Below are positions 11,369-54,765 of a stretch of DNA of 64,000 nt, in pieces. Position 1 is the stretch's first letter, and every line of letters starts with the position of its first letter. Made by a program: the position numbers and the translations under genes. Origin of the DNA: Eledone cirrhosa (lineage: Eukaryota); the NCBI GenBank assembly GCA_964016885.1, contig OZ024740.1, forward strand, positions 345,092,001 to 345,156,000. Direction: 5' to 3'. The notes under the pieces were generated by a model. That model was not told the DNA's origin. It was given only the letters and a program-made list of their open reading frames with translations, and did no database searches.

Positions 11369-12259
11369 TCTCTCGCCATCTTTCTCGCCCTCTTTCTCTC
11401 TCTCTATTTCTTCCCCTATCAATTCATATACAACTAACTACTTATCCTTTCTCCCCCAGCGGACAACAGGTGCAATGTAGCTCACAGTTATTCCGGAGAA
11501 ATTTCATCGAGACATTCTTCAGTCGTTCCTTGCCAGTTCAATGATTTGGTGTGAATTAAAGTAGTGCGGATGAGGTTGTTTGGCGTTTTGCATACAAGAT
11601 CCCACTTAGAAATGGTTAAATATTTGAATTTATTATTTAGAAATGTAAATTATACTTGACAATGAATCAACCTGCCTGAAAGAGCAGACAAATCTCACCC
11701 CCTCAAATCCATAAAATATGAAAGCAGTTTGTATATAGTTTCGTAGTATTTTATCTGATTGCTTGCAGTCGGTTAAAATTACAATGTTGTCAACATTGCG
11801 TTCCATTCCTTTTTAGAGTTTGAGCTCATCAAACATTTTTGGAACATTTTTAACAAATGAAGTGGGTTTTGACCTTGCCTTCACGCTAGAAACATCAGGC
11901 ATGGGTATGTTTTCCTGGCTTGATAGGACAATCAACTGAGACGACAGATAAGAGAATATATATATGAATAAGGAAAGGAAATTACTATGTGTGTCATTCG
12001 ATCGTACTTCATGAAATAGGTTCTTACTTTCTGTACATGTCGACCGAAAGAAATTTCATCATGACGAAATGTTTCCCACAAAATGCATCAAGATAGGCTG
12101 TAGGATTTCTCTTCTTAACTTGCTTTTCACTATTTAATTTCATCCAAATATAGTTTATGTCTTGAAATTCTGAAGAGCTGACAGATGATATTTTACACTA
12201 AACATGAATGCGAAACATTACCGATGCCGTATATATATATATCAACTAGAAATAGATTG

Positions 12260-12350
<91 letters not shown>

Positions 12351-12506: not shown

Positions 12507-12537
<31 letters not shown>

Positions 12538-12540
<3 letters not shown>

Positions 12541-13068
12541 ATCAAGGTTTAGCAAATAAGAAAAAGTTTCAAAATAAATTTTTAAAAATTAACTGTACTC
12601 ACTATGGTTACCTTTACCGAATCGGTTTCGAGTCTCAAAAACAAACGGATAGTCCTTACGGCCATCCATTGCAAAGATAAACTCTCGTCAGAAGGATCTT
12701 TTCACTCGGAGAATATAAAATTCCTGAGTTCAAATTACGAACTGGCGCTATTCAAAATTGTTCCCGAGATGAGAATAAATGATGTGGAATCAATTCTGTC
12801 CAGTGCCGTGCGTAAAGATACAAGCAAAGGCAGGGAGGTCAGTCTACTACCACTATAACTAGCAGAAGTCAGAACGACCAGATTTTTTCTCGACCAAGAG
12901 GAGATTAATAATAAAGTATATATCCCTACGCGCAAAGCGGCTAGGGACACATTTATTGTCCAAATATATGACAATGTGGTTCAATGGCAGGTTAATAAAT
13001 TAACGAGCCAGAACATATATAATCTAGGTTTAGCAAATAAGAAAAAGTTTCAAAATAAATTTAAAAAA
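12538..13068 (-). mobile_element. Non-coding hammerhead insert in (TA)n: 481-bp unit plus about 50-bp terminal direct repeat
   Basis: atc(a/t)aggtttagcaaataagaaaaagtttcaaaataaattt at 12541 and 13022. TA tracts on both sides. Confidence 0.85.
12611..12695 (-). ncRNA. Canonical type I hammerhead ribozyme
   Basis: Minus strand: cctt-CTGACGA-GAGT...ACTC-GAAA-CCG att CGG-TA-aagg. All three stems pair. Predicted cleavage GUA| between 12615 and 12614. Confidence 0.88.
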
Positions 13069-13162
<94 letters not shown>

Positions 13163-13280
13163 AACATCATAAACAATCACAGGGAATAATTTGTAAAGTG
13201 TGTAAGCAGACACAGCTAGGTAGGTAACTCATTAAAGTTTAACTAGAACTTCAAATATAGATACCTTTTAAAATGATTAA

Positions 13281-13371
13281 TCTCCTTTGTATATATTTGT
13301 TTAAATACAAAATATATTTCACCATTAATCGGTAAATCACAGTAGTAAAATCGGATGATCACCAAAGGAGA
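13281..13371 (-). ncRNA. Hammerhead ribozyme, G3-C8 core variant (copy 1)
   Basis: Minus strand: tctcctttg-GTGATCA-t cc...gg t-GAAA-tatatt...aatata-TA-caaaggaga. Confidence 0.75.
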
Positions 13372-13822
13372 AGATCCAACTATCTGTGTTTACACAGCAA
13401 ATGCAAATCTGTGAATGACTCGTACCACGTGTTGCATTTAAAAAAAAAATACACACATCACACAGCGTCATCCCAGTAGCGTGAATAGGATTATCGACAG
13501 CTAGACATAGCAGCCGAGTCCATTCAACCGAGTTAGCTCTACAATTAAGGGGCCGTATATATATCCAAAATTAAATTAAGGGTGTCATGTCTGAGAGACA
13601 TGCGCCATATCCACTGCAGAATAAGCTCAAAGATTCCAATGAATAGATCCGAGCATTTTATATCAACTAGAAATAGATTGACATATATATATATATATAA
13701 AATAAACATATGAAACAATCACAGGGAATAATGTGTAAAGTGTGTAAGCACACACAGCTAGGGAGGTACCTAATTGAAGTTTAACTAGAACTTCAAATAT
13801 AGATACCTTTTAAAATGATTAA

Positions 13823-13915
13823 TCTCCTTTGTATATATTGGTTTAAATAAAAAATATATTTCACCATTAATAGGTAAATCACAGTAGTAAAATTCCGGAT
13901 GATCACCAAAGGAGA
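13823..13915 (-). ncRNA. Hammerhead ribozyme, G3-C8 core variant (copy 2)
   Basis: Same core and stems I/III as copy 1. Confidence 0.75.
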
Positions 13916-14421
13916 AGATCCAACTATCTGTGTTTACACAGCAAATGCAAATCTGTGAATGACTCGTACCACGTGTTGCATTTTTTAAACAAAGGAGATT
14001 AATCATTTTAAAAGGTGTCTATATTTGAAGTTCTAGTTAAACTTTAATTAGTTACCTACCTAGCCAAATTATTCCCTGTGATTATTTCATATGTTTATTT
14101 TATATATATATATATGTCAATCTATTTCTAGTTGATATAAAATGCTCGGATCTATTCATTGGAATCTTTGAGCTTATTCTCCAGTGGATATGGCGCATGT
14201 CTCTCACACGTGACACCCTTAATTTAAATTTGGATATATATACGGCCCCTTAATTGTAGAGCTAACTCAGTTGAATGGACTCGGCTGCTATTTCTAGCTG
14301 TCAATAATTCACGCCACTGGGATGACGCTGTGCGATGTGTGTATTTTATTTTTAAATGCAACACGTGGTACGAGTCATTCACAGATATGCATTTGCTGTG
14401 TAAACACAGATAGTTGGATCT

Positions 14422-14514
14422 TCTCCTTTGGTGATCATCCGTGATTTTACTACTGTGATTTACTGATTAATGGTGAAATATATTTTTTATTTAAACCAAT
14501 ATATACAAAGGAGA
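14422..14514 (+). ncRNA. Hammerhead ribozyme, G3-C8 core variant (copy 3)
   Basis: Stem I 14422-14430/14506-14514 (9 bp), GTGATCA 14431-14437, GAAA 14475-14478, 7-bp stem III, AUA triplet ending at 14505. Confidence 0.78.
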
Positions 14515-14776
14515 TTAATTATTTTAAAAGGTATCTATATTTGAAGTTCTAGTTAAACTTTAATGAGTTACCTACCTAGCTGTGTGTGCTTACACACTTT
14601 ACAAATTATTCCCTGTGATTGTTTCATATGTTTATTTTATATATATATATATATATATATCAATATATTTTGAGTTGATATAAAATGCTCGGATCTATTC
14701 ATTGGAATCTTTGAGCTTATTCTGCAATGGATATGGCGCATGTCTCTCAGACATGACACCCGTAATTTAATTTTGG

Positions 14777-14853
<77 letters not shown>

Positions 14854-19491: not shown

Positions 19492-19717
19492 ATATTAATA
19501 AATGGAAACTATATTTATAAAACCATAATTATTTTATTATATATATTTCAAGGGCAACCAAAGCAAATTTTGGTGCGCTTTCATCAGATAAAATACAAAT
19601 TTGTTTTATAAATATATATTGACATACCCGCATAAAGACAACCTTTTGCGTGCGTGCAACTGCATGTAGTTGTCTTTGTATCCTTTAAACCAACCCCAGT
19701 CATATACGCAACAATAC

Positions 19718-39700: not shown

Positions 39701-42206
39701 AGCAGGGACTGATATGAGATCAATTAACGCTTCTCCCAGCAGGCAATTACTAGAAAAGGCTTATGCAAAAGAATCTCTATATTATCAATTATTATTTTCA
39801 TTATTTTTATTTTTTTCGAAAAGTTCCTTAGGATAAATCAAAGCAACAGCTGAACGTAAACCACACCTGCCAACAACAACAACATCACTAATCATCCCAT
39901 ATGCAGCAACTCGAGTATTGCTTTAATGGCAGGTGAAACTGCCAGGAGTAGCAGCAAGAACAGCTACATCAGTAATGGCAACAACAGTAGTTCTATTCTG
40001 ACGGTTAGCTCCTTTGATGTAGTTGCAAAACCTTTTTACTATGTACCGCAGGAAAATAAACATACGCAAAAGCAAGAAGCTGGAGAAATCATCCAAACAA
40101 AGGATGCTACTAGATCTCTTCGAGGAAATACAACGATATCTGTCTGTTACAATCCGACGTTTAAAAATGACATATCACGTGAAAATTGAAAGAAATTTGA
40201 AGGACACTTCTATGAATGGAGCCGAACAAGTGAGACGTGATAAAGAATGTCAGGCTCATAACATTTTTCTCAAAAGTGTTTGCAAAGATGTTGGTGCTTT
40301 TCATTGGTAGTTTAGTCGGAGATCTGATGCATCGTTTGGTTTATCTAAAGTAGATCCAAGTGTTTTGGGGCACTGGCAATTTTTTATTAATCTAAAGCGT
40401 TTGACAAATCGACAATCACTACCTGGAAACTGTCCTAAAAGCAGGTGTCTCCAACACATCTTTCAGAATCTATATAACAACGTCTAACAGCGACATCTAC
40501 TCAGTAGCCAACGAAACAGCCACGTATCCTTGCATATACAACAGTCGGTCTATCAGGAATGTCCCCACTGGAAGCCTCTACAGGGAAGAAGAAGAATAGA
40601 CATCTTAAAAGATATCCCGCTTCAAGTTAGTTGCAGGAAAACCATGTCTTCGAATGAAAATGATGTTATCGTCTGACACTTCAGATATAGAGTCAGTCAA
40701 ACCATACTGGAAAATAAGAGTAGGCTGGATACTGGAGCTTACATTAAACGCGTATGTTAGTGGGCTTGCAATTCACCAGGCAGCAATGGAGGCACACTCT
40801 AGGCAGCAGAAATTTCTACTGTTGCACCATCGGTCTGGTTTGGAGCCATGTTTGGACTGGTCTTTCAGGTAAAAACGCACTGGGAGGAGGTTATAAAAAA
40901 GAAAGGCAATCTACCTAACGATTGAGCAGAGAGAAAGCTGTCTCTCAATGATCGGGTGGTGGTGACAAACACCTATATCACTTTTGTGTTATACTACATA
41001 ACAGAACACGCCAAATACCTGATTAAAATGAAACACTTACCTTTCAACATTTGTGTGGAAGGGACATGTTCTGATGGTCAAAGAATATATCTACTGCCAA
41101 TAACCACTCTATGGGGTTCTTGAGATATCATTTCTAATTATGCACATACACGCAATAAGGCTTACAAACCTGCGGATTTACCCCAAGTAACACAACGACG
41201 ATGACAACGAAAGCGAATCTCAACCAATATAAGTTTCTTTTTTGTGTCATAAGTTTCTTCATCTGGTCTTCTTGATCAAGCTACCGCCTTGTGCCAAGCA
41301 CATACTACAGTAACTAGCGTGGAATCTAGAGTACTCACGTGCGCTCACAACAACGTGTCAAGCTGAGCAACGTGATAGGCAGCCAGATTATAGAGGAGGT
41401 TAGTAGATCGACAATGTCTTCAGATCCGGCTATCAGCCGGGTCTATAGTGAAGATTGAACCACCACTTTCTTTGTGAAGGGTTACAATCTAATTTCTTTC
41501 TGCCTTGGCGTTATGCTGAAGGTAGCTGTAAAGTGAACTCGACCAAACGGTTTGCTGACTGGAATCTTACTGTCGAGTCAAACTCTCATCATATTCTACT
41601 TGAAGAAGAACTGGATGATATAGAAGCAAATGCTGTATTCTAGTGTGTTTTATGAACAATGGGTAAGAAGGAGAAGATTGATTAGTCTAATTGGACCTAT
41701 TGTACTTATGCTTTACTAACAAAGAGGAAAGAAAACGGCAACGTTCAATGCCCGTAAAGTGATAGAGTAACCCAGGCTTTAGTGTGGAATTCTCCCTAGG
41801 AATATCCTAATATTGGGATCTGGGAAGCGGTCAGAGTTAACTCATCAATTGGGAATTGGTCCTAGTTGACATCATTATTGTGTTCTATTATCAAGTGTAT
41901 ATATTTAAAAATTCATATTATTGTTATACCTACTGTTCTAAGTTCATTGATACTCGCGTTCCTTTACTCCATGAAAACACTACTATGTGTTGTTTTTTCC
42001 TTGGGTTGTTCACAATATCTTAGGCCCTTGTGACCCGTAAAAGAAATTATCATTATAATTGTGATGTTAATGATCATGAAAAGGGTGATGAATGAGATTT
42101 ATTATTAACATAAAACAAAGAAAACCGAAATTAAACATATATCATGTGATACTATATTTTTCTTCTTTCTTTTATTTTATTCATATGCTTTTCATTGCTC
42201 TCTTTA

Positions 42207-42282
<76 letters not shown>

Positions 42283-42745
42283 TTATATTTATGTATATAT
42301 ATATATACGGTTTCAGTTCTTTTCCAATATTTTCATTTTACTAAAGTCTGTTTAAACATGAGGCTGTCTGTCAAATATTATCTCTCAACCATTTAAATAT
42401 TTTTAATGAACTTAGAATGAATATCTCCTTTACGTTGATCTCAGAAACATTCTTCGTGGCAAAGTTTTACTTCGACATGGAAGCCTTTACATTTTCGTAA
42501 AAGATATTTTTTTATATTTTTTCCACCTTTATCAGTATTTTCACACTTCCTCCCCCCGTCCCTTTCTGTCATACAAATACACATATATCTACATTTTCAA
42601 TCACTCATCCTTCAATTTCCTCTGTATTTCTCGCCCCGCCCCCAAACACACACGCACACAAACACGCACACACAAATATATATATATATGCAAAATTTGT
42701 ACATGCATTCAAACATATATTACAGAATGTATTTTTATATTTAGT

Positions 42746-42795
<50 letters not shown>

Positions 42796-42924
42796 TATAT
42801 ATACATTAATAATTACATACGCGTATATATGTAAGTATTACAATATTTCATATATTTGATTTATTTACAAGCACACAGACATACATACAAACCCACACAC
42901 TCAAGCACGGATATATATGAATTT

Positions 42925-44780
<1,856 letters not shown>

Positions 44781-44995
44781 GTTTATACATATTGTATATC
44801 GATGATAGATTTTTCTGTCTGTTTTCAGTATGAATGGTATCGATGCCCACATGATATTCTATGCAATGAGCATTGTACTTTTTTCACATTAACCTGATGT
44901 AAATCTGTCATGTACTTTCTTTTTATTATGCTTCATTTTATATGTGTATGTATGAATGCATGTATGTAGCTTAGTATACATTGTCATATATACAT

Positions 44996-45011
44996 ATGTA
45001 TGATATGTATG

Positions 45012-45098
<87 letters not shown>

Positions 45099-45176
45099 AC
45101 GTATTTATATATATATATATACATATATATATGTATGTGTATATATATATAATGTATGTGTATATATATATATATG

Positions 45177-45220
<44 letters not shown>

Positions 45221-45230
45221 TGTATGTGTG

Positions 45231-45264
<34 letters not shown>

Positions 45265-45324
45265 CATATATATACGATATATATATATATACATATATAT
45301 AAATATAAATATATACACACACAC

Positions 45325-45381
<57 letters not shown>
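44996..45381. repeat. Interrupted (TA)n microsatellite
   Basis: Direct reading. Confidence 0.95.
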
Positions 45382-45383
<2 letters not shown>

Positions 45384-45918
45384 TATGCATATATTTGTTT
45401 ATTTTAAATACTCTGCTTCTTCACCACGCATACACTCAAAATACTCAAAATGAAATGATATCACGGCGTATTCTGGTAACGTTTACAAATTGTCTTTTTA
45501 TCATTTCATATACTACTGCTTTTCTTCTTTGTATTTTTTAAATATATTACCATATTCAATAAAGAATTATGTACTATTGGAAGTGTCATATCTTGTCACA
45601 ACCAATATGATGTATTTGTTAGGGCGTTATTTCATCTTTCTTTCTATTTTGCTGTAGCTGTATTGGTTGTAATGGAAGAAGTTGTTGTTTTAGTTGATGT
45701 TGTTGCTGATGTTGTTGCTGTTGTTGTTGATGATGGTGATGATTATAATGGGGATGTGTAAAGCTGTCATTGTTACTCATCACGTGATGTCACCATGCTT
45801 CTCCTGTAAGTTCGGCGCGCGGGTGGTTATGTGAGAATGTTGTTGTGAATCCGTGTGCTGCCAAGGAACGTGGGTGTAACCCTGTTGTAATGTACGGTCC
45901 CTCTGGAGTTGCTAAACG

Positions 45919-45991
45919 TCATGGATTCAGGAGTTGCAAGGAGTTGGAATCATATCTCCATGCATAAAATGGCCGTCTGGATTGAGGGTAA
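45919..45991 (-). other. Possible terminal coding exon (unidentified)
   Basis: Strong acceptor ctttacttttctttatatttcatag. Frames xTLNPDGHFMHGDMIPTPCNS* or YPQSRRPFYAWRYDSNSLQLLNP*, followed by CAA-rich UTR-like sequence. Confidence 0.35.
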
Positions 45992-46547
45992 CTATGAAAT
46001 ATAAAGAAAAGTAAAGAATCAGTAAATAATATTTTCTGGAGTAAATATTTGAAAAAAACGTTGAATATATATTGAAAAGAACATAATTATTTATTAAGCA
46101 AAATCTCGCATAGGAGTATGGAATTATATATTTATATTTTATCTTTCCATCATTAACGTCAATTTACATCGCACATAGCTATAGGAGATAGGTTTCGACT
46201 AGAGAGAAAAGATTTAAAGAAACTGTCATCGGAATAATAATAGATGAAATAAAAGTACGTATGGGACTAAAAATATTTCAAAGAGAAATTAAATAAGTTA
46301 GAGAAATTAAATAAGGTAGAATGAACAAAGAGAACGAAAGAAAACTTAGCTTAAAGGTAAAGAGAATAAGAAGGAATTACGGAAGATAACTATCTGGTGA
46401 AAAAAGGTGTTAGAAATAGTTTCAGAATTCAGCCAGCTTGAATTCACCCCATGGTTTGAGATGATGACAGATATATAAACATAGAAAATCTCAGCCTTCT
46501 TTGCAACTCTTTAACCAAATATGTAATATATACTGCACTTGTATATG

Positions 46548-46586
<39 letters not shown>

Positions 46587-46755
46587 GTGTGCTTGTGTGT
46601 GTATGTTTGTACGTATGTATGTGTGTATATATGCGTATTTGTGTGTGTTTGTATATATAAAGTGAGTTGGCCACGTTAAAATCTTAACCGCCAGATAAAT
46701 ACCAACGGTAGGTAGCTATATAGGCCAAATTTACCCACATATTAGAAGTTACATC

Positions 46756-50851
<4,096 letters not shown>

Positions 50852-51589
50852 CGTGTGTGTGTGTATGTGTTGTGTTGTTTGTACATGATTCCGCTTTTGC
50901 AGTTCAGAAACCTCTTCGTTCTCTAGCAAGTACCTTATATACTAATGCTAGTCAAATGCTGTCTGTAACAAAGTCATGCCTGAAATTACTTCAGAAGATT
51001 TTGGAACATTTAGCGCCCTTATTCTGTCAACATCAATTATACGTTGAACTTCACCCCCCCCCCCCCCCCCTAATCGGCAACCATCATTACACTATATGAA
51101 ATGAACTCTTTTATTTGTTTTTGCTTTTGTTTATTTTTTTCGCAAAATCTCCAAGGTGTTTCTGTACTTCATGTTTAAGTTATCTAAACTGAAACTATCA
51201 CTGGAAATATTATATAGTGATTTCATTGCTATTGTTTCTTTAATGACATGTAGTATATTGGCTGAAATATTAGCGTCAATGGATATGTAAATCATACTTG
51301 CTCATTATATCTAAATATATACAAATATAGCATGAAGTTAGAGAACTACATATATAATATGCTGTTCCTTTAGCTGGCATTGCTAACTTTAAATTGCTTC
51401 TATAAACATTTAAAATGACACAACAGGTAACATTGTTATATGTTCACAATTAACCCCTCTATAAAAACATAGTCTATTTACCGTCTGTTTGTTGAACATC
51501 ATTGAAGAATAATTCATGTTATAATGATTTTATAATGGTAGGTATTTAAACAATATTTTAAATAGCAATCAAAATGTTTTATTACTGGC

Positions 51590-51851
51590 ACGAGTGTTCC
51601 AGGTGATATTATCAACGGAACAGCCTGCTCATGAAATTAATGCGCAAGTGGCTTAGCGTTCCATACATGCGTACACTTAACGTCGTTCTTAGGGAGATTC
51701 AGTGTGACACAGAATGTGACAAGGGTGGCGATTCAAATTGCCAGCTGAGATGATTGGAGCAAAGTGAAATAAATTGTCTTGCTCAAGGATACCTAGCTCC
51801 ACCGTAAGATTTTGAGCCGAACACCCTAATCACAAACCCATGCGCCTTCAC
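51590..51851 (-). mobile_element. Second SINE family remnant
   Basis: Reverse complement begins gtgaaggcgcatgg and contains ccttgagcaagacaatttatttcac. A related fragment is at about 29164-29190. Confidence 0.6.
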
Positions 51852-54765
51852 AATCAAAATATTTTAAACATTTATTAAAATAATATTTGATTATCTTCAG
51901 TGCGTTTAAATATACCCCAAATAAATACTTCCATTGAAAAGACCTAGTCACTATAAACAATACCTCTCATAAAATCCCTATATGCCACGAACCCCAAGTT
52001 CCTCATCTGAATCAATCAGTTAACCAATGTTTTCAATAATTCTCTGTAGTCATGTTTTCCTTATTGACTTCCTAAAAAAATTAATAATCACATCTTAATT
52101 GGATTTTGCTACTTGTTACACAATTTGTGTCTTGTACATAATATATCAATCACAAAGCTATTTTGATAACATGTAAATGCATTGATTAATTTTTATGAAG
52201 CCTGCTCACAACATCAATGAATCGATTGGCCAAATGTGTAACATTTTGTTTTCAGGTAGATTATATTGTTGTCTTCTATTAATACCAGATCAACCCTGAT
52301 CAAGCAGATCTATGACAAAATCATTCCATTATTCTCGATTTTTTTTTCTGGTGGGGGAGGGGTGTTCTTATATCACGAACTGTCCTATAAATCTCACTGT
52401 CTCTATTTCTAGAACATTTCTCTGCAACTTCTAGAAGTCCGAATGATCTTTTTCAAGGTCTCTTATTACTTCATGTTGTTTCAGCGTCCTTCATACATTT
52501 GGCAAAACCCTTAAAATAATACATACAATCTCGACCGAGGTATGAATTTGAATTCAAGGAAATAATCTACGTTTCCTCTACACCTAACCTCCGTGCGATT
52601 ACCGAAGAATTGGGCCCATATTTCACCGATATTATTGTAGTACTGACAAAATATGTCCAGTTAAGCACTAGAGGGATCTATTCGACTGACTCTAACTCCT
52701 GCCTCCCCTTTTTTGTTAAATTTAAAATCAATATAAGTATGACGTTATAGTTATTGAATGTTATTATACTGTATATATGATTGAACTAATAATTCGTATA
52801 TTTTCATTTTGCCATTAATAAAATCATTTTTATATTCCTATATTTCCTTCAATGGAATGAAATTTATTCACATATGATATAAGAAGGAAATCTTCAAAAA
52901 CTTCGAAATTTCTTTTCGCAATATTTCATTATATTTGACTAGCAAAATGCTTGACCGTTTCCGATTTCCAAAATATGCATAATGCTTACCGTTGTATATA
53001 CGTATAAGGCTTCCATTGAGAGGTTCGTCTGACGTTTGCCATGTGGTAAAGCTATACATCTTTCCTTGGGCTGTGCTTATATAGTTTGTTTTGATATCTT
53101 GTTTACATATTCTCTTTACCCAACCCTTTTCTCTTAGATTTATATTCAATAAAAAAAATGGTAAACGTGTGTTGTTAGATGTATTCATTTACAAAAAAGC
53201 AACAGTGTCAGATTTAGCGAGGTATGTTTGGTTGATCTAATCTATTAGAGACTGAGTCGGAGTCTCTATTTGATTATTAGGTAGGAATAGTTCTAACATT
53301 CTGGAAAAAGTTTCTTACATCAAATAATTACATTTTATCTCGCCTATTAACGAGAATCTTCAGTTTATTTAAAATTTGAATCTGTATATGCAATATATTG
53401 AACTGATCCAGTGTAACAGTACTTATAATAACGAGACTTGAAAGATGAAAGCAGAGTCGATCTTAACAGAATTTGAACATCAAAACTGAGATACCAAACA
53501 CTTTGAGACAGATCCATGAATAATTCCTTTTAATGTGAAGAAGCTATTTCCCAACAGCATTTGCGTAGTTTTCACACTGGAATAGGCATAATTAAAACGG
53601 TGTATTTCTGTCTTCAAGTTGACCAAGGATTCTTTCTGTTTCAGTTATTTAAATCACAATTATTATTGCGAACTTGAACGCATGACACGAAGCTATTATA
53701 TAATCTACATATTTTGTTAATTCTCATTGAGTAATGCTAGAAATCAATATAAAATCCTATGCATTATCACAGTCTTTTAAGCCGGGGGGATTGCAAAGAC
53801 GTGATTAACCAAGTGACATTCCTCCGAACAATCCTGAAATTAATTGCTTTGCAGCTCATGTGGCTCAAATGTTGATAACGTTGAAGAGTTAAATATTCCT
53901 CGTAAATAGTCAGGAAATGTTATAATTGTAGTAAAGTCACCAAGCAAAACAACGCCTCAAATCGTATTAACAGTGTTTTCATACTTAATCCTTGCCTATT
54001 AACCTTCATCAATGCAAGCCATTCAGAGCATTCTTTCGTTTTATCTTATCAAATATATCACGATTACGGAAAACTTCCTATAATAGAAAGTTCTAGAGGA
54101 ATGCAGTTTGGGTTGCCATTTCCATTTAAAATTAGAGCCGCTTCACTTGTATAACATGTACCTTTGGGAAACTTCATTTATGTCGCACTTCTCTATTGCT
54201 TCTTATCTACAACTTTATGATGTTATGCTATATCTTAAATATAGTTTCGCTTTCGTTGTTGTTATCGTTGTGCGTCAGTCTTAGTTTGTTACTGATTAAA
54301 AAGACATATGGACAGAGGTACAATTAATAAGAACTGCATTATCTAATGTATTATTCCTTTCTCCGGATGGTAGGTGGTGATTTGAAGGATATAGACTGTG
54401 GTCACATTGTGGCACCGCTTTTAAGGGTTATGTAGGTTTATATCGACATCATTACTTGAATGATACATATTTTATCGATTTTGACAGCCCAGTATATGAA
54501 ACGATCGAACCAAGTACCACAAATCATTTTGTTCGGCTATATAACCATCATTCTTTCCATCATCCAATGTAAATATAACAAAGGAAACCCACCAATTTTT
54601 AAAATACTGATAAGGGTTAATATCTTTCGCATATGCAATAGCAAGACATGTCTACACAACACCCAACTGCGAAAATTTGGGGAAAATGAAAAAGTGAAAT
54701 ATTTTTACAGAGTTAGTTTTTCAAACGGTATATAAGTTAAATAACTAAAGTTCTACATTGCATAC

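Follow-up and report, generated by a model that had tools for sequence, protein, structure and literature searches.

We conclude that three motifs in a genomic stretch of Eledone cirrhosa are type I hammerheads with a swapped G3-C8 pair and that, judging from their sequences, they probably encode a selected self-cleaving ribozyme carried by a Penelope-type non-autonomous retroelement. The window, by which we mean the whole stretch of DNA analyzed, spans 64,000 nt (assembly GCA_964016885.1, OZ024740.1:345,092,001-345,156,000, forward strand). Observed directly are the anatomy of the motifs, the copy numbers of their family, a three-state covariation of positions 3 and 8, an arrangement in partial tandems and inverted arms, and 3' ends at fixed positions in (TA)n. 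The notable part is the switching of the 3-8 pair among three states within one family; this is neither a new ribozyme class nor a new kind of element. On the evidence of covariation, the G3-C8 form known from laboratory mutants likely works in nature.

The three hammerheads sit in one head-to-head insertion of a 543-nt noncoding repeat within (TA)n. Its parts, in window positions, are as follows.

13069..13157, unstranded: left (TA)n target tract
13127..13983, minus strand: minus arm, ~1.6 units, with two whole hammerheads ~542 nt apart
13281..13371, minus strand: type I hammerhead copy 1, core 13356-13362, predicted cut between 13290 and 13289
13823..13915, minus strand: type I hammerhead copy 2, core 13900-13906, predicted cut between 13832 and 13831
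13990..14785, plus strand: plus arm, ~1.5 units, holding copy 3
14243..14785, plus strand: whole 543-nt repeat unit
14422..14514, plus strand: type I hammerhead copy 3, from sequence anatomy and the type I descriptor
14422-14430 / 14506-14514, plus strand: copy 3 stem I, 9 bp
14431..14437, plus strand: copy 3 core GTGATCA, read as G3-U4-G5-A6-U7-C8-A9 with the swapped 3-8 pair, from sequence and family covariation
14438..14474, plus strand: copy 3 stem II (U.U, C-G, C-G, R-U) with a long variable loop
14459-14465, plus strand: loop II blocking strand, predicted to pair with 14471-14477
14465-14471, plus strand: GAUUAAU, candidate pseudoknot partner, complementary to the tail AUUAAUC at 14514-14520, past stem I
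14475..14505, plus strand: copy 3 G12-A13-A14-A15.1, stem III, and AUA triplet together
14475-14478, plus strand: copy 3 GAAA, that is, G12-A13-A14-A15.1
14478-14484 / 14498-14504, plus strand: copy 3 stem III, 7 bp
14503-14505, plus strand: copy 3 AUA triplet, predicted cut between 14505 and 14506
14777..14802, unstranded: right (TA)n target tract

The first base of the plus arm is the one that follows the predicted cut (13990 matches 14506); the arm is short of ~20 nt near 14064 and ends in (TA)n at the family's commonest 3' end. The minus arm, whose 3' end enters (TA)n at 13069-13157, is joined to it head to head, and the two are ~95% alike. Within the unit at 14243..14785, there is no reading frame longer than 80 codons from stop to stop, and the longest ATG frame has 40 codons. 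A remnant of ~25 nt of the same family lies at 12237-12261 (minus strand) and ends at the second common 3' end in a TA run. Window positions 12534-13070 hold a different short element, also inserted in (TA)n, whose ends carry a direct repeat of 56 nt, 481 nt apart; the type I descriptor finds no hammerhead in it, and its end sequence also flanks a GIY-YIG-like fragment at locus L110. Very AT-rich simple repeats (GC down to 6%) occupy 42000-52000 and are a source of spurious long ORFs and miRNA-family hits.

The initial annotation, made from the letters of this DNA, had described a 9-bp stem I, GTGATCA, a U-U base of stem II, GAAA, a 7-bp stem III, and an AUA triplet, and each of these parts is in place. 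In copy 3, stem II opens with U10.1.U11.1 at 14438/14474, followed by C-G, C-G, and G.U. Where the literal consensus calls for C3 and G8, the window has G3 and C8 instead, and Rfam gave no hammerhead family match for either the whole window or 13200-14640. The annotation had also noted that the core and stems I and III are identical in three copies whose loops differ. Copies 1-3 indeed agree at every position of the core, of stem I, of stem III (7 bp), and of the stem II base, and the 6 columns that differ all lie elsewhere; the minor alleles U7 and TTTTAC are common to all three. The identity is real, but the copies are parts of one insertion and are ~95% alike over hundreds of bases, so their agreement alone is weak evidence of conservation.

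The GTGATCA heptamer by itself is not above chance in the 64-kb window (7 matches versus 10.2 expected). A type I descriptor in which any Watson-Crick 3-8 pair was allowed, with hits counted at a score of at least 13, returned four hits in the 64 kb, namely, copies 1-3 (scores 19-20) and one canonical hammerhead (score 13). Unlike the heptamer, the whole motif is above chance in the window. The canonical hammerhead, at 19540-19600 on the minus strand, is of type I, with a CUGAUGA core (19581-19587), a short palindromic stem III, and an AUA triplet, and it resembles those of Penelope end repeats at locus L176.

Thousands of copies of the 543-nt family occur in the 3.0-Gb genome (2764 candidates; 1583 exact 15-mer matches). 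One looser genome-wide pattern gave 2294 family copies, comprising 1573 with U3-A8, 435 with G3-C8, 172 with C3-G8, and 114 others kept as one undivided class; a Watson-Crick 3-8 pair is present in 2180 (95%). The commonest core of the family has U3-A8; swapped copies usually read GUGACCA or GUGAACA, with GUGAUCA as a minor allele. Among 414 copies with the exact stem I of the window, 340 have G-C (a figure obtained by subtraction, the listed matches being counted by hand), 32 C-G, 6 U-A, and none A-U, and 36 are mismatched; the C-G and U-A copies with this stem I are the same element along its whole length.

Thus, in the genome-wide alignment that the initial annotation had proposed as a check, positions 3 and 8 move together among three Watson-Crick pairs and not independently. 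Its remark that CUGANGA searches overlook such variants is borne out, as 2008 of the 2294 copies (88%) have U3-A8 or G3-C8 and would be missed, which shows the reach of these searches. Its suggestion of a functional variant ribozyme in an animal repeat gains support from the covariation; its emphasis on GUGAUCA does not carry over to the family, which is mostly U3-A8. A chance look-alike multiplied by recent duplication could explain why the heptamer is not overrepresented, why the three window copies are one event, and why Rfam has no match. Yet canonical CUGANGA copies of the same element exist (the 172 found by one pattern), the 3-8 covariation tests described next speak against it, and the C3-G8 and U3-A8 branches effectively refute it, so that we give it a negligible probability.

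Selection of copies by ribozyme sequence was avoided in a sample anchored on a motif ~115 nt upstream of the hammerhead. It included 93 of the first 100 matches listed (one of the seven left out was a duplicate) plus one unlisted neighbor; four were dropped because the element ends before the hammerhead, and 90 copies were aligned. At 3-8, these have U-A in 68 copies, C-G in 9, G-C in 7, other combinations in 5, and a gap in 1, giving a Watson-Crick pair in 84 of 89. The hammerhead pattern of U4, G5, A6, A9, G12, A13, A14, and A15.1-U16.1, with a free N7 and H17, is found in this sample. N7 takes four states (58 A, 17 C, 13 U, and 1 G), and position 17, where any base but G is expected, is A in 86 of the 90. 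A variant common to at least four copies is seen in 1 of 10 invariant-core columns (U4C, in 4 copies) versus 137 of 217 columns outside the ribozyme (Fisher p 0.001, the columns not being independent).

Of 37,460 column pairs, 3-8 alone combines three Watson-Crick types with pairing of at least 90%; a control in which 23 non-Watson-Crick letter codes were applied over the three-state columns gave 2 hits in total. We take this three-state covariation, a property of the aligned copies, to point to selection on an active hammerhead fold. Two-state covariation is seen in 12 pairs, only one of them in a stem; it arises often from kinship alone and is therefore cheap, so two-sided changes in stem I lend only modest support. 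In a structure count over 55 rows (54 of the 90 plus copy 3), 95.8% of positions expected to pair do so, with 36 two-sided cells, a level reached in 0 of 500 shuffles, which leave kinship in. The type I plan of three stems around the core, with stem I open, is seen here: stems I and III are 94-98% paired in these rows, and the three pairs of stem II are 96% paired, mostly invariant, with almost no two-sided change. The covariation in the stems for which the initial annotation had called is thus found, modestly, in stem I and hardly at all in stem II, which is down to 2 bp in the GUGAACA branch. The stem II base that it had called weak, U10.1.U11.1, is kept in 86 of the 90 copies and is a natural feature already published in PMC3088659; this and the other papers are cited here for what the available portions of their texts describe.

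The history of the pair was followed in a tree built from 214 copies after positions 3, 7, and 8 had been masked. In it, the 190 Watson-Crick rows need 4 changes and the 24 non-Watson-Crick rows, which are scattered tips, need 21; mismatches therefore look like private decay and the paired states like amplified branches. A careful tree of 64 of the 214 rows also needs 4 changes; its starred branches split C3-G8 into at least two groups, and G3-C8 can be attributed to one or two origins (1-2 changes). These trees, which have open forks and no outgroup, require at least three switches of the 3-8 pair. By median nearest-neighbor distance, G3-C8 is the least diverged class (0.037, versus 0.046 for U-A and 0.071 for C-G, in class samples drawn differently).

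The family hammerhead could be real and its G3-C8 branch nearly dead, having spread for other reasons, with cleavage irrelevant to that branch. The initial annotation held that the compensatory swap restores activity; C3G/G8C rescue is documented in PMC11167929, PMC9901934, and PMC8495972, but in two of these papers it is only partial, and in the available text of PMC11167929 cleavage is not needed in vitro. By sequence, moreover, A6-C7-C8-A9 of a swapped core can pair with the 3' strand of stem II (core-pairing misfolds are predicted), stem II of one G3-C8 branch has only those 2 bp, and a single origin is possible. Against a nearly dead branch, two transversions were needed and landed on a Watson-Crick pair, and this least diverged class has reached 435 copies. 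The exact core and stem III strings are kept in several of its sub-branches despite a changing loop II, and when all pairwise changes were scanned, G:C was the only double change in the CUGA turn that gave rescue (PMC9901934). We consider a nearly dead branch unlikely and favor a selected ribozyme.

How readily such a ribozyme would fold is a separate matter. In a nearest-neighbor model, which ignores core and tertiary contacts, the hammerhead fold is less stable than the best fold by a median of 6.0 kcal/mol in 53 G3-C8 copies, where stem II has a probability near 0, and by 6.1 and 7.7 kcal/mol in the U-A and C-G classes, respectively (120 copies across the three classes). Since the penalty is similar in all three pair classes, it is not specific to the G3-C8 swap. 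Stems I and III are predicted to form and stem II is not (the window copies were also folded). In the predicted competing hairpin, the loop II strand pairs with UGGUGA and would hide G12-A13. An ACCGA/UUGGU hairpin, with a long insert after A9, was considered as the catalytic stem II and ruled out, as it is broken in ACGGA branches and removed by a recurring U3-A8 deletion; for the same two reasons, the blocking hairpin is not essential. At loci L211, L219, and L238, a U3-A8 sub-branch has a 14-nt loop II deletion in common, with the blocking strand gone and GAUUAAU kept, and this sub-branch is a natural control for the idea of an off switch. Loop II GAUUAAU and tail AUUAAUC may form a pseudoknot of the kind described in PMC3088659. 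Frequent variants give G.U only, and no change is compensatory; GAUUAUU or GAUUAAC, found in one C3-G8 branch, partly breaks the complementarity. As a circle, the 543-nt unit is predicted to be self-paired (z of -5.0 versus 40 shuffles, partly from the TA run).

The ends of the insertions were surveyed in 189 de-duplicated arm segments from 130 loci. Many of the 3' ends fall at two sites, with 67 and 34 in the respective 15-nt bins, and 44 lie in an internal TA run, a grouping that resembles the two priming sites described in PMC11167929. The 5' ends are scattered. Some arms are longer than 820 nt and include two complete junctions, which means that the RNA copied there was uncut or religated. 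We also asked whether 5' ends mark the cut, as they might if cleavage occurred in vivo; this was not upheld, as 3 of the 189 arms start within 1 nt of it, with ~1 expected (P of 0.09). Because only these 3 do so, the start of the plus arm at the predicted cut was dropped as evidence.

These templates bear on a different reading, in which the conserved fold serves a helper reverse transcriptase as a binding site or a priming signal and is hammerhead-like in form with no cutting needed. Such a signal would accommodate the whole junctions in copied templates, the 5' ends that do not gather at the cut, and the prediction of stems I and III without stem II. It gives no reason, however, for Watson-Crick covariation at exactly 3-8 or for a free N7, leaves the fixed G5, A6, A9, G12, A13, A14, and H17 unaccounted for, and must contend with priming ends located 140-280 nt downstream. 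We regard it as quite improbable compared with a ribozyme selected for cleavage.

With its partial-tandem and inverted layout, fixed internal 3' ends, and AT-rich targets, the repeat has the features of a non-autonomous Penelope-like element, and as in retrozymes, there are tandem units, in short arrays, each with a type I hammerhead and no ORF. We infer a Penelope-like link from these features. The genome contains an abundant 821-amino-acid Penelope-type ORF whose end repeats hold canonical hammerheads with the same AUA triplet. The Atlas clusters nearest to this ORF carry HTH_animal, GIY-YIG, and RVT_1 in a share of their members; Pfam gave no significant family for either ORF searched. Loci L161-L180 represent this abundant young family, with many near-identical 821-amino-acid frames and 56,966 first-look candidates. 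As a candidate autonomous partner, this one family was compared with the 543-nt unit, and the two have no common sequence beyond TA-rich matches. At other loci, neighboring RT or GIY-YIG pieces show no recurring junction with the element. At one locus (L011:2142-3326 / L141:2142-4048), the element is joined without spacer to residues ~305 to 821 of a 5'-cut ORF of this Penelope-type family, 82% identical to P0001 (over 321-821). This fusion is a possible template-switch chimera; a later deletion fits too. Loci L197 and L198, 0.9 Mb apart, are identical over at least 180 nt and have the same flanking RT fragment, probably as a result of segmental duplication.

We propose that tandem transcripts would be cut after AUA into 543-nt units, possibly circularized as in retrozymes, and that a Penelope reverse transcriptase/GIY-YIG protein would copy these units in trans into (TA)n. 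Amplification would have been confined to source copies with a Watson-Crick 3-8 pair, the pair having switched at least three times. With less confidence, we suggest that cutting may be slow or assisted, because G12-A13 would be buried by the predicted loop II hairpin and laboratory mutants with the swap are less active. Templates exceeding one unit would then persist, uncut or religated, and the insertions show that such templates were copied. A slow or protein-assisted ribozyme would fit both these templates and the lizard Penelope-like element (PLE) of PMC11167929, in which cleavage needed protein, C3G/G8C rescued it partly, and cleavage was not required for insertion in vitro. A fuller version, which we offer as a tentative conjecture, is that the scaffold passed in turn through three active 3-8 forms, including the first natural G3-C8 (A3-U8 was not seen), and that slow cores and the blocking hairpin tune cleavage down and so spare uncut or circular multiunit RNA for Penelope copying.

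Several of these features have precedents. Perreault et al. (2011; PMC3088659) describe the U10.1.U11.1 base of stem II, 2-bp stems II, loop pseudoknots, and U3-A8 covariation, and natural U3-A8 is also published in PMC4209133. In the available texts of PMC11167929, PMC9901934, PMC8495972, and PMC3884650, G3-C8 appears only as an engineered change, and the searched text of PMC3088659, PMC6765202, PMC6155905, and PMC10085705 contains no natural G3-C8. A natural G3-C8 was likewise not found in the literature searched, which comprised running text and text-searchable supplements; nor did this search find an octopus hammerhead paper.

Besides the variants of Perreault et al., three published systems come nearest to this family. 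The type I hammerheads in Penelope-like pseudo-LTRs (Cervera and de la Peña 2014; PMC4209133) share the topology, the dispersed truncated copies, opposite-strand pairs 100-700 bp apart, and natural 3-8 covariation, including the U3-A8 Cercyon of Schistosoma mansoni. The family described here differs, as far as the available text of that paper goes, in its G3-C8 pair, in having three pair types in one family, and in lacking an ORF; its stem III is 7-11 bp, as in fungal and protist PLEs, and not minimal, and its stem II opens with U.U, not G-C. Animal non-LTR retrozymes (Cervera and de la Peña 2020, PMC7229834; Li et al. 2026, 10.64898/2026.07.22.740005) are similarly noncoding, with one type I hammerhead per repeat and inferred use of PLE machinery, and the predicted self-paired circular unit is a further likeness. 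The unit here is 543 nt versus ~170-400 nt there, has a noncanonical core, occurs as partial tandems and inverted arms instead of long arrays, and is known from genomic sequence. The engineered C3G/G8C hammerheads (Frangieh 2024, PMC11167929; Roberts 2023, PMC9901934; PMC8495972) carry the identical swap, once in a PLE hammerhead, whereas the swap found here is natural and present in hundreds of copies beside U3-A8 and C3-G8 relatives on the same scaffold.

The 3-8 tertiary pair has so far rested on crystal structures, laboratory rescue, and natural U3-A8; the natural G-C state, missing until now, is supplied by the three-state covariation of this one lineage. The family also provides near-isogenic forms with which to ask why hammerheads almost always have C3-G8 and whether a slow ribozyme suits Penelope-type elements, given that cleavage was dispensable in vitro in PMC11167929.

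Contig counts from three sequencing runs, presumed to be RNA, were 0, 1, and 0, and a fourth run, of unspecified kind, yielded 2630 contigs that carry the tandem joint and G>T at 14431; these counts have no bearing on expression. Two further hammerhead families, at L142 (minus strand, ~2858 of the reverse complement) and L176 (plus strand, ~6736), have canonical cores and also have a U.U opening of stem II, followed by C-G/C-G or C-G/G-C, so this U10.1.U11.1 base recurs in the genome.
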